Below, one piece after another: positions 22,749 to 25,598 of a DNA stretch of 64,000 nucleotides. Below the pieces are notes generated by a model. That model was not told the origin of the DNA and made no database searches. It worked only from the letters and a program-made list of their open reading frames with translations. Positions within the stretch are counted from its first letter, which is position 1. Every line of letters begins with the position of its first letter. The stretch spans positions 1 through 64,000 of the IMG/VR virus record IMGVR_UViG_3300029305_001878, one strand, 5' to 3'. The translations under genes and the position numbers were made by a program. This DNA comes from a virus (Duplodnaviria; Heunggongvirae; Uroviricota; Caudoviricetes).

Positions 22749-23003
22749 ATGAATTTTAATGAATACTATATTCATATAGAAGAAGATGATGCTTTAATTT
22801 TATTAAAACATCAACACGAAAAAAATAGGTTTAAATTTTATTGGGATTTCTTTAAAGACTATTCTTTTTTATCTAAATATCAATAGGCGAATAAAGAGTT
22901 TTTAAAATATAGAAATTATGTTATTATGAAATATATACAAGATAAACCATATGCTGATTTTTATATTGATTTAAATAATAAAAGAATAGTCTGTATTTTA
23001 TAA
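22749..23003 (+). CDS. Small hypothetical protein (1 TAG), first gene of the rSAM cluster
   Basis: RBS aaaaggag; 84 codons with TAG at codon 46. Confidence 0.35.
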
Positions 23004-23019
23004 AAAGGAGTTGAAATAA

Positions 23020-24324
23020 ATGATTAAACCTTCTATGTCATATCACGATTTTTTAGGATTAATTTATAATCAAGAAAATAATGGACGTTCTGTAAAAGAT
23101 TTTACTTTTCAAGTAACTGAAGATTGCAATCTATGTTGTACTTACTGTTATTAGATTAATAAAACTCCTAATAGAATGACCTTTGATATAGCAAAATAGT
23201 ATATTGATTATCTTTTTGAAAATAAAGATAATCCAGATTTTTTTTATAGTAAGAAAACCACTCAAGGATTTATTATTAATTTTATTGGTGGAGAACCTTT
23301 TTTAGAAATTGATTTAGTAGACTAGATTATTGAATATTTTGAAAAGAAACTCATTGAAACTAATGAAGAAGAATGGATGCTAAATCACGCTTATAATTTT
23401 TCTACTAATGGAACTTTATATTTTACTCCAAAAGTATAGAAATTTTTATAGAAATATAATGGTATAGTTAATGTTGGTGTAACTATTGATGGAAATAAAG
23501 AATTACACGATTCTTGCAGATTATTTCCAGATGGAAGTGGTAGTTATGATATTGCAGTGCGCGCCGCACTAAATGAAAAGGCGAGAGGCAATGAAGGCAC
23601 TAAAATTACAATATCTCCTAATAATATTGATTATATCTTTGATGGCATTACAAATTTATTAAAATTGGGTTTTAAACAGATTAATGCTAATTGCGTTTTC
23701 GAAGATGTTTGGACAGTTGAAAGTGCTAAACGTTTATTTGATGAATTAAAAAGAATTAGTGATTGGATTTATGAAAATAAACTATATAATAAAATATATT
23801 TAAGTATTTTATATCCCGATAATTTTACTCCTTTAGAAGAACATCAATTAGATAGAGGTTGGTGTGGCGCTAGTTCAGGAATGAGTTCTCTTGACTATAA
23901 AGGTGACTTATATCCTTGTATTCGCTTTATGAAATCTTCTTTGGGTGAAAATTTAAAACCTTTGGCTATCGGAGATATAAATAATGGTTTTTTATCTAAA
24001 CCTGAACATATTGAAAATTATGATAATATAAAGAAATCATATATTATTAAAAATGCAAATCCTAGTAAATGTTTAGAATGTTCTATTGCTAATGGATGCG
24101 GTTGGTGTGCTGGATGTGAATATCAATTAAGTGAAGGATTTGCTCAACGAAAAACTACTACTTGTGATACTCATAAAATGCAAGCATTAGCATCTAAATA
24201 TTTATGTAAAATTTGTAATGATAAAGAAAGTTTTGATAATATTAAATTAGAATATAATATGTATAATCATTTAATTGATGAAAATGATTTTAATAAGATT
24301 AATATATGGAAGGAGGAGGAATAA
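23020..24324 (+). CDS. Radical SAM enzyme with C-terminal SPASM domain (anSME-like maturase); 6 in-frame TAG
   Basis: TEDCNLCCTYCY (CxxxCxxC, anSME-like) plus C-terminal CLECSIANGCGWCAGCEY SPASM cysteines. The frame is continuous only if the TAGs are sense. Confidence 0.7.
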
Positions 24325-25598
24325 TGGGTAAAATTGTAGATAATACTTCACAATGGACTCCTGGCGCTAGTTCTTCTAACAATAGTTGCGGAGATAATTG
24401 TTCTTTAAGTTGTTTTGAAAGTATTAATAAATAGAATAAAAGTGAAGGAGAAAAATATACAGAGGCTGAAATAAAAAATAATGGTTATACTGGACCTCAA
24501 CATAAAGAAGAAATAAAACATTTACTAGGCACTGAATTCGTTGATGAAAATGGATATTGGACAGAAAAAGCAGATGCAGAAACAAGACATAATTTAAGAG
24601 CAGAAAATAGAGACTATTATTTAGTTGGAAATTATAGTTGTGGAGATGGATGTCAAAATGGATGTGCTGCTTGTACCGATCAATGTGGAAATAGTTGTCA
24701 AGTAAATAGTGGAAATACTTGTGGCTGCAGTAATAGTGGATGTACTGGTGGATGTTCTGGTAACTGCACCGGTAGTTGTTCTGGTAGTTGTGATAGCAGT
24801 TGTAGTGGTGGCTGTCAAGGCAGTTGTAAAACATCTTGCGATGTAGGATGTTCTTCTCAAGAACAATTAGATAATATAACTGAATTAGATAGAATTGTTC
24901 GAGCCCCTAATATTCAAAATATCTTCAAATTTATTATATACGAAGCAGAAAAACGCAGAAATAAAAAAATTCCTACTTCTTATAAAACTACAATTAACAA
25001 TTTAAAAGGTTGGACACAAGACCAAGAAGATAGTCTTATGTTATTATATTATAATATACCTCGTATATTTGAAAGAACTTTTAAAAATATTCTTGAACAA
25101 CCTTTAAGCAATATACAATCTGGCTCTTTAAATCCTAATGATAATTTTGCTCCCTATTTCCCTGAAATAGATGAAATACAAACATTTAGAATGACCCGAA
25201 GTAACAATCCAAGTTATAATGATACTTGGCTGCAATGGTATAGAGGTCCTGGTGGCAATTTAGACACTAGACCTGGTTTCGGCAGTGATTTTTATTTACC
25301 ACCACTAGGGAGTTGGTTATTAGGCGCTTTATTTGGTACTGGTGAAGAATATCTTGAAAACTTAAATAAGCATCATCCAAGTGGCACAGATAATCCTTAT
25401 TACCCTAATGATTCAAGTGCAGTAATTGAAAAAGTAGAAGAAGAAGAACCACCAGAAGAACCTCCAGTAGAAGAAGAACCCGGTATTGACAATTCTGAAG
25501 GATTTAAATACTATACTGATAGATTCTCTGCACAAGAATGGGTAGATAAAGCAATGGCTTTATATAATGAAATAATTCCTCATTATGATGCAAGATAA
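24324..25598 (+). CDS. Cys-rich repeat protein (CGxxC/SGxC tandem array), candidate rSAM substrate
   Basis: ATG overlaps the upstream stop. ~80-aa segment of C-G/S-x-C repeats (CGDGCQNGCAACTDQCGNSCQ...GSCSGSCDSSCSGGCQGSC), a proline/Glu-rich C-terminus, and one TAG. Confidence 0.55.

Follow-up and report, generated by a model that had tools for sequence, protein, structure and literature searches.

A radical SAM maturase gene coupled to a large Cys-repeat protein gene in a TAG-recoded phage: a putative phage-borne CXXX-repeat modification cassette

The window analyzed here is a 64,000-nucleotide stretch of a Caudoviricetes phage (positions 1 to 64,000 of IMG/VR record IMGVR_UViG_3300029305_001878). 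At 22749-25598 it carries genes for a small protein, a radical S-adenosylmethionine (rSAM) enzyme and a 424-amino-acid (aa) protein with a dense Cys array, which are proposed to act as parts of a phage version of the CXXX-repeat modification system predicted in bacteria.

Gene layout and genetic code of the locus

The window is AT-rich (~31% GC), nearly all of its genes lie on the + strand, and TAG is the sole interruption in many of its long reading frames. Reading TAG as sense yields three co-directional genes, whose coordinates agree with those given in an initial annotation of this DNA and each of which contains in-frame TAG, as had been stated there. Their features are as follows.

22749-23003 (+): g22749, 84 aa, directly 5' of the rSAM gene, 1 TAG; probable divergent TIGR04116-like paralogue
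23020-24324 (+): rSAM/SPASM maturase, 434 aa, 5 in-frame TAG; TIGR04115, phrog_1802 and CteB matches
23125-23148 (+): CX3CX2C radical-SAM cluster motif, C36/C40/C43, read from the sequence and invariant in the enzyme alignment
23863-24165 (+): SPASM region with seven invariant Cys (C282, C300, C351, C354, C360, C363 and C382)
24324-25598 (+): Cys-repeat protein, 424 aa, presumed substrate, with a start codon overlapping that of the rSAM stop
24387-24413 (+): N-terminal mini cluster C22-x3-C26-x3-C30, with C26 and C30 invariant in the orthologue alignment
24639-24851 (+): CXXX array, residues 106-176, 18 Cys; predicted modification site
24885-24959 (+): conserved helix just 3' of the array, LDRIVRAPNIQNIFKFIIYEAEKRR; candidate recognition ("follower") segment
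25509-25595 (+): conserved C-terminal helix, YYTDRFSAQEWVDKAMALYNEIIPHYDAR, seen in the orthologue alignment and in further family members

The stop codon of the rSAM gene (TAA, 24322-24324) shares a base with the following ATG (24324-24326), so the TAATG coupling of the two genes that had been claimed is borne out by the coordinates, and an AGGAGG Shine-Dalgarno site lies 5 nt 5' of that ATG. The five TAG sites of the rSAM gene are codons 45, 60, 102, 140 and 144, the first directly after the CX3CX2C motif, while g22749 has one at 22884 and the Cys-rich gene has one at codon 37. According to the alignment with 64 non-recoded homologues, Gln dominates at three of the five rSAM TAG columns (54/64, 42/60 and 52/64), which supports Gln as the best reading of TAG in this gut phage. 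No tRNA gene was found in the 64-kb window, hence no suppressor tRNA there, despite the pervasive TAG recoding. The related code-15 phage Phass-1 possesses two tRNA-Sup-CTA genes, ~5.7 kb from its rSAM gene. As well, the closest relatives of the replication genes of the window, at ~40% identity, are found in phages of Bacillota and in Phass-1, and the window encodes the anaerobic ribonucleotide reductase NrdD, which fits an oxygen-sensitive rSAM enzyme at work in an anaerobic host.

The radical SAM enzyme and the Cys-repeat protein

By score, the enzyme is a member of TIGR04115 ("radical SAM peptide maturase, CXXX-repeat target family"), with a score of 354.1 bits (E 1e-105; curated cutoff, 350) and an alignment spanning model positions 2-358 of 359 when TAG is translated as Gln. 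The CXXX-repeat peptide modification system was reportedly defined in silico by Haft and Basu in 2011, and we take its parts to be a target repeat (TIGR04114), an rSAM enzyme (TIGR04115), an associated protein (TIGR04116) and a second maturase (TIGR04119). Our comparison with this system included L002, a canonical bacterial locus in which TIGR04119 is present. The phage enzyme also matches phrog_1802, while Pfam gives a weak generic Radical_SAM/Fer4_12 signal only.

The NCBIfam models ranked next after TIGR04115 are all thioether maturases, each scoring below its own cutoff: PapB (NF047865, the second-best model, 189.2 bits, cutoff 340), CcpM (113 bits, cutoff 500), the SCIFF maturase (TIGR03974, 99.5 bits, cutoff 425) and QhpD (TIGR03906, 94.6 bits, cutoff 453). 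Among solved structures, the SCIFF thioether maturase CteB (5WGG, E 3.5e-21) comes closest, and the phage enzyme has the rSAM core and SPASM domain in common with it. The alignment starts at CteB residue 95, and the first ~94 residues of CteB are its recognition element (RRE) for RiPPs (peptides made by the ribosome and modified after translation). Therefore, the phage enzyme lacks an N-terminal RRE domain, and no PqqD-like winged helix was found in it by model scores or as an N-terminal extension in the CteB alignment.

The initial annotation had pointed to CNLCCTYCY as an anaerobic sulfatase maturase-like (anSME-like) cluster accompanied by SPASM cysteines. This motif is present at residues 36-44, and its CX3CX2C cysteines as well as the seven SPASM-type cysteines are invariant in the alignment with four homologues. 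SPASM architecture is common to both enzyme types, and together with this motif it might suggest an enzyme of the anSME type, which converts Cys to formylglycine, or some other rSAM for cofactor maturation, the Cys-rich neighbor then being mere coincidence. However, the phage enzyme scores no more than 46.9 bits with the anaerobic sulfatase maturase model (TIGR03942; cutoff 349), the alignment is confined to the rSAM core, no sulfatase was found among the neighbors scanned, and adjacency to a Cys-repeat gene is conserved. This explanation is thus effectively refuted by the model scores, and the classification as a sulfatase maturase, which had been named as a possible refutation of the maturase-substrate reading, does not hold.

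The Cys array of the 424-aa protein comprises 71 residues with 18 Cys. It had been described as ~80 central residues of tandem CxxC/SGxC repeats, and the dense repeat is real, with both quoted strings (CQNGCAACTDQCGNSCQ and GSCSGSCDSSCSGGCQGSC) found in the protein, but its unit is C-x3-C instead of CxxC, because 13 of the 17 Cys spacings equal 4. The X positions are rich in Gly, Ser, Thr and Asn, and Asp/Glu make up 5-8% only. Considering that the Cys density has a binomial P of ~1e-15 relative to the 1.9% Cys in window open reading frames (ORFs), and that all array Cys are invariant across four orthologues at 35-84% identity, the array is not a product of chance. At the DNA level the repeats have diverged to 64-77% matches, and thus are not a recent slippage artefact.

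Residues 102-177 of the Cys-rich protein match phrog_6085 (E 3e-7), and weak precomputed matches to PF27846 ("tSAM_targ_Cxxx_rpt") exist for the orthologues P0003 and P0004. In our Pfam search, not even the canonical L002 precursor matched PF27846, so that the model may be missing from that Pfam copy. The array, at residues 106-176 of 424, is not the C-terminal tail of a short precursor; it is followed by a conserved region of 248 residues, and no signal peptide was detected. The helix just after the array is invariant at I191-I197, I200, F201, F203 and R211 in the orthologue alignment and is also conserved in P0043-P0050. PHROG, Pfam and NCBIfam searches with the C-terminal domain were uninformative, and no relatives of this domain were detected outside the Cys-repeat protein family of the window.

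A 5.8-billion-protein index contained only four homologues of the Cys-rich protein, with 82, 39, 38 and 36% identity. A search with the C-terminal 247 residues against 1.84 billion representatives added seven further proteins of 261-922 aa, whose architecture consists, in order, of an N-terminal mini Cys cluster, a CXXX array, RIVxxxNIxxIFxFIxyEaexRR, LLYYNIPRIFE and a C-terminal YYADxxSAxEW...LYN...DAK. Among 50,697 phage records, neither megablast with 21000-27000 nor tblastn with the Cys-rich protein found a match.

Taken together, these features point to a reaction in which the rSAM enzyme would modify Cys residues of the C-x3-C array, and perhaps also those at residues 22-30. The most likely chemistry would be a series of short intramolecular thioether (S-C) cross-links, because the related characterized enzymes all make Cys-derived thioethers, and such chemistry is suggested for the TIGR04115-type enzyme by this analogy. 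The cross-links could turn the Gly/Ser/Cys-rich stretch into a covalently stapled rod resistant to redox conditions and proteases, and the post-array helix is the best candidate for a substrate-docking segment.

The known thioether systems differ from this scheme in several respects. PapB, the ranthipeptide maturase of freyrasin, aligns with the phage enzyme from the rSAM core into the SPASM region (residues 25-366) and its substrates, too, have Cys residues spaced regularly at short distances. The links made by PapB join Cys to Asp/Glu within CX3D/E motifs, whereas the array of the window has Cys at +4 and few acidic residues, and the score lies below the PapB cutoff. Similarly, the SCIFF precursor is a ~45-aa peptide with six Cys, in contrast to the 424-aa target here. 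The QhpD-QhpC pair offers a precedent, in which an rSAM/SPASM enzyme installs several Cys thioethers in a subunit retained as a structural part of a complex, although the window enzyme is below the QhpD cutoff and no amine dehydrogenase genes are present here.

The genetic code might also set the time of the reaction. Full-length rSAM enzyme requires TAG suppression, because its gene contains five TAG codons, the first of them directly behind the cluster motif. TAG suppression in recoded phages is associated with late expression, and the enzyme would therefore probably be made late in infection, once suppression is active.

Conservation of the pairing, accessory proteins and phage context

The orthologues P0001-P0004 adjoin the rSAM gene in L003-L007, contigs that are TAG-recoded too and carry an identical cassette of small protein, rSAM enzyme and Cys-rich protein. 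Absence of the Cys-rich gene from homologous clusters, which would have spoken against a functional pair, was looked for, and the gene was instead found there. The synteny of these contigs with the window comprises a Band_7/SPFH gene, the cassette, genes of ~150, ~98 and ~75 aa, and PIN-PhoH, endolysin-like, holin-like and gyrB genes.

Scanning with the rSAM alignment confirmed at least 263 relatives in viral contigs and at least 535 in bacterial genomes, so the CXXX-repeat rSAM family is widespread; the locus counts given below refer to the best 80 of each set, the viral ones being 36-49% identical. A same-strand Cys-repeat ORF lies within ~2.5 kb of the rSAM gene at 79/80 viral loci, and one was found close to it, again on the same strand, at 70/80 bacterial loci. 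The viral Cys-repeat ORFs encode 81-899 aa with up to 126 Cys, while most bacterial targets are short (55-250 aa) and some (L002 and L141) carry a twin-arginine translocation (TAT)-type signal. The conservation of the maturase-substrate pairing across these sequences is well supported, and the Cys-rich protein is accordingly regarded as the likely substrate of the rSAM enzyme.

These data also bear on a metal-binding reading, according to which the array is metallothionein-like or Fe-S-binding and the enzyme performs non-cross-linking chemistry, for example Cys oxidation or epimerization, or acts on another substrate. A stretch with 18 Cys per 71 residues would be an avid metal binder, TAT export is seen in some bacterial homologues, as is typical for cytoplasmic folding or cofactor uptake, and the chemistry of TIGR04115 is a prediction only. 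Nevertheless, the array nearly always co-occurs with the rSAM clade, the nearest characterized relatives all form Cys-derived thioethers, and the SPASM domain of the enzyme is complete, with all 7 Cys, as in peptide-modifying enzymes. We consider this reading rather unlikely.

A RiPP-style maturase acting on a Cys-repeat substrate within a large protein, as the initial annotation had put it, is in keeping with a TIGR04115 score above the cutoff and with the thioether-forming CteB as the closest structure. That annotation had named neither the in-silico family TIGR04114 to TIGR04119 nor the TIGR04116-like accessory proteins and the tail-module relatives described below. It had offered a cross-linked product and a structural or injected role as possibilities, which is also how they stand here. 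Judged from sequence, the cassette is a phage version of the predicted bacterial CXXX-repeat modification system, itself known in silico only. In common with it, the window has an rSAM enzyme above the TIGR04115 cutoff, an adjoining C-x3-C array and a TIGR04116-like small protein. Unlike the bacterial system, it is carried by a TAG-recoded phage, and its array lies inside a 424-aa protein with a conserved post-array region and not at the C-terminal end of a short precursor. It also has up to three diverged TIGR04116-like genes, its target and accessory proteins score below the curated models, and its phage relatives are associated with tail modules.

Besides g22749, the following genes and signals surround the cassette.

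18481-18768 (+): g18481, 95 aa, third TIGR04116-like small protein (family HMM E 6e-22), an orphan 4.3 kb 5' of the cassette
20988-21019 (+): terminator-like hairpin with a 13-bp stem and T run, 3' of the Band_7 gene; upstream unit boundary, with an equivalent in L003
21163-22719 (+): g21163 (163 aa, coiled coil) and g21670 (349 aa, beta-helix-like repeats by eye), inside the hairpin-bounded unit
25652-26110 (+): g25652, 152 aa, always 3' of the cassette in syntenic large-phage clades
26091-26381 (+): g26091, 96-aa TIGR04116-like accessory protein (family HMM E 6e-14)
26385-26413 (+): terminator-like hairpin with a 13-bp stem and T run, just 3' of g26091; downstream unit boundary

Almost every related locus encodes a protein of ~90-115 aa directly beside the rSAM gene. 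TIGR04116 ("CXXX repeat peptide modification system protein") was matched by 4/32 diverse members of this small-protein family, including the L002 member, and PHROG, Pfam and NCBIfam searches on the small proteins gave nothing informative beyond these four matches. The family hidden Markov model (HMM) was built without the window clade, and hhalign linked g26091 to the family with a probability of 98.4%. For g22749, which has counterparts upstream of the rSAM gene in L003 (with a non-ATG start), L006, L010 and L011, no direct Pfam, NCBIfam or PHROG match was obtained; its group aligned with the accessory family over 83 columns (probability 82%, E 1e-5; reversed control 0.9%), and it is probably a divergent paralogue. 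Neither g26091 nor g22749 matched the TIGR04116 model itself (cutoff 50 bits), so that both are linked to it transitively only.

As the rSAM enzyme lacks an RRE, the TIGR04116-like small proteins, namely g26091 and probably also the divergent g22749, are natural candidates for assisting it by presenting the substrate. The AlphaFold2 (AF2) model of g26091 has a pLDDT of 87.6 and a beta-alpha-alpha-beta-beta topology, i.e., a strand, two long helices and a beta-hairpin. A PqqD-type RRE was considered for this protein and rejected, its model giving 0 Foldseek PDB matches at E<=1e-3, and the small-protein profile found nothing below E 0.08 among PDB sequences.

The two hairpins bracket g21163, g21670, g22749, the rSAM gene, the Cys-rich gene, g25652 and g26091. 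Although g21163 and g21670 lie within this unit, they are absent from L003 and L006 and thus are not core parts of the system. The product of g25652, which belongs to cluster 24 in L003, L006, L010, L011, L042, L045, L046, L062 and L079, gave no confident Pfam or PHROG family match and nothing informative in NCBIfam, and it is only a possible member of the CXXX system. A promoter scan of the window was no better than chance (37 found versus 38 expected from shuffles).

In other phages, the system is often found among structural genes. At 39/80 viral loci, representatives of the neighboring clusters hit PHROG families for baseplate wedge, baseplate, minor tail or virion structural proteins. Moreover, in several relatives the Cys array is fused to a fibre-like protein, as in L028 (582 aa, with weak tail-fibre PHROG matches in its N-terminal part), L089 (899 aa, a large fibre-like protein) and L052 (806 aa, a large fibre-like protein with Gly-rich domains). 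The Salmonella jumbo phage SPN3US encodes two 133-aa proteins with CXXX tails 5' of two rSAM genes, and the genes of these CXXX proteins adjoin "virion structural protein 20". The rSAM genes of SPN3US (gp163/gp164), Erwinia phages and CP220-like phages (phrog_1802 and phrog_6085) are homologous to that of the window with 23-26% identity; unlike the window, SPN3US has short targets with the array at the C-terminus and two rSAM genes. Such a gene pair thus also occurs in culturable phages, namely SPN3US and related Salmonella/Erwinia jumbo phages. For these jumbo and Campylobacter phages, the literature notes the rSAM genes as unusual and says no more (PMC3322345), and no publication on a phage form of the CXXX system was found in the literature searched.

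One of the two SPN3US CXXX proteins corresponds to a 133-aa ORF that lacks annotation and has 21 Cys in its CXXX tail (L008 2085-2483 = NC_027402.1 143831-144229, - strand), which stands in tandem with gp100/gp166, whose annotated start looks ~24 codons too short.

In most phage CXXX proteins, the array is preceded by a conserved leader-like domain of ~105 aa at the N-terminus (..LTAxEmxxLKxKVKxEMxRR..YDF..P..G..). The order is reversed in L076 and L083, where this domain is C-terminal to the array (E 5e-8 and 3e-5, 0/1326 decoys), so that leader and follower topologies both exist in phage CXXX proteins. The post-array helix of the window family resembles this domain in its pattern, though not significantly; with an iterated HMM, intermediates such as L045 were not separable from decoys.

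These observations can be compared with a classical RiPP reading, in which the 424-aa protein is a precursor from which a modified Cys-rich peptide is excised, to be released as a signal, an anti-competitor molecule or a bacteriocin that is produced during infection. The annotation of the enzyme family is that of a peptide maturase, and the mostly short and sometimes TAT-signal-bearing bacterial targets would suit such a product. However, neither a protease nor an exporter was found in the hairpin-bounded unit, the 424-aa protein lacks a signal peptide, its array is mid-protein with strongly conserved post-array and C-terminal segments, and the relatives in phages lie among tail or baseplate genes or are fused with them. 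An excised peptide is accordingly improbable.

Our preferred reading is that of a maturation cassette whose product would be a late, virion-associated structural protein of the fibre type, and not a cleaved secreted peptide. The structural role of the 424-aa protein is suggested by analogy with the relatives and by the fibre-like g21163 and g21670 in the same hairpin-bounded unit, an argument that is weaker for the window clade. Alternatively, the maturase-substrate pair could be real and its product a non-virion intracellular factor, for instance an anti-defense or host-takeover protein. This is consistent with the non-structural genes (SPFH/Band_7, PIN-PhoH, endolysin-like and gyrase) around the cassette in the window clade and with a C-terminal domain without detectable relatives outside its family, whereas the tail-module context and fibre-like fusions of many relatives, as well as g21163 and g21670 themselves, argue for a structural role. 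We regard the intracellular alternative as possible, though less probable than a virion protein.

For the whole explanation, a phage-borne CXXX-repeat rSAM maturation cassette, we estimate a probability of about 0.6. Several results weigh against it. The enzyme exceeds the TIGR04115 cutoff by 4 bits only, and neither a demonstrated reaction nor a function for any TIGR04115 member was found in the literature searched. The scarcity of Asp/Glu at the X positions means that PapB-type Cys-to-Asp/Glu links cannot be the general rule. As for the target, the Cys-rich protein has no TIGR04114 match (no NCBIfam match at E<=0.1), and its AF2 model, built from five sequences, has a pLDDT of 37 and is unusable for fold. 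The bacterial partner TIGR04119 is missing: a phmmer search with the L002 member found no second maturase in the window ORFs or the 80 viral loci, the sole signal there being weak SPASM similarity to the main rSAM enzymes. The cassette of the window clade lies between SPFH/Band_7, PIN-PhoH and endolysin-like genes and not in a tail module, and seven viral loci on 110-206-kb contigs have the same non-tail synteny. Finally, homology of the post-array helix to the leader-like domain was tried and rejected: hhalign picked the expected register both times, with E 0.14 and 0.13 versus 0.22 and 0.27 for reversed controls, and as this match is not significant, no homology is claimed for the helix.

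If phage fibre proteins are indeed stapled in this way, RiPP-type modification would extend to large structural proteins and provide a disulfide-free reinforced rod able to survive the reducing, protease-rich gut. The association of the phage versions with large conserved proteins, often in tail modules, suggests that RiPP-like cross-linking may serve virion proteins too. It is a more tentative, and on balance doubtful, generalization that many phages staple the Cys-repeat segments of their own fibre proteins with thioether ladders made by a dedicated rSAM enzyme, the window representing a follower-topology lineage. Such stapling, if borne out, would constitute a new class of covalent reinforcement in phage structural biology and offer a natural substrate set for engineering repeated thioether staples into proteins.

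Other features of the window and related loci

The orphan g18481 is flanked by kinase-like and metallophosphatase genes, with no rSAM or Cys-repeat gene beside it, and the syntenic relatives L003 and L006 have no gene at this position. A relative of g21670 (21670-22719) is a hypothetical protein of a virus assigned to Methanomassiliicoccales (BK063680 = RefSeq NC_134205), with 32% identity over 72% of the query; the only other phage-database match is weak and lies in the unannotated human-faecal phage contig MT836106, while PHROG, Pfam and NCBIfam searches with g21670 were uninformative. In L048, L054, L067 and similar tail-module loci, at ~9000-12200, a reverse-transcriptase-like gene (cluster 12) adjoins a gene for a ~400-aa protein (cluster 20), a pair that by eye resembles a diversity-generating retroelement beside tail fibres.

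Selfish elements break up replication and nucleotide genes of the window at 41145-44840, 52145-57144 and 57916-61702. A helicase-like ORF in this region carries a LAGLIDADG insert, and the gene for Pol III alpha is in two parts, 52145-54643 and 55768-57144, separated by an ORF (54825-55649) that is GIY-YIG-like by eye. Likewise, a similar ORF (60264-61202) comes after NrdD, and then a short fragment, NrdG-like by eye (61421-61702). The ORF at 36046-37044 (+, 332 codons) has 12 in-frame TAGs, by far the densest in the window. By eye, its product has a hydrophobic segment at the N-terminus and a coiled coil, and its C-terminus is GIY-YIG-like.

An 816-aa protein encoded at 3045-5495 (+) contains Major Vault Protein shoulder and vault-repeat Pfam domains (E 1e-22 and 5e-10), and a 518-aa DUF2828/DUF7788 protein is encoded a few kb 3' of it, at 8718-10274 (+); both domain sets are unusual in phage. 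The gene at 1167-2930 (+) encodes a 587-aa protein with DUF285 (a Mycoplasma/BspA-type leucine-rich repeat) and has four TAG codons, and its product is possibly a receptor-binding protein. A nicotinamide/nicotinate phosphoribosyltransferase-like gene, with NAMPT_N and NAPRTase matches, is located at 13805-15574 (+), which suggests phage-encoded NAD salvage.

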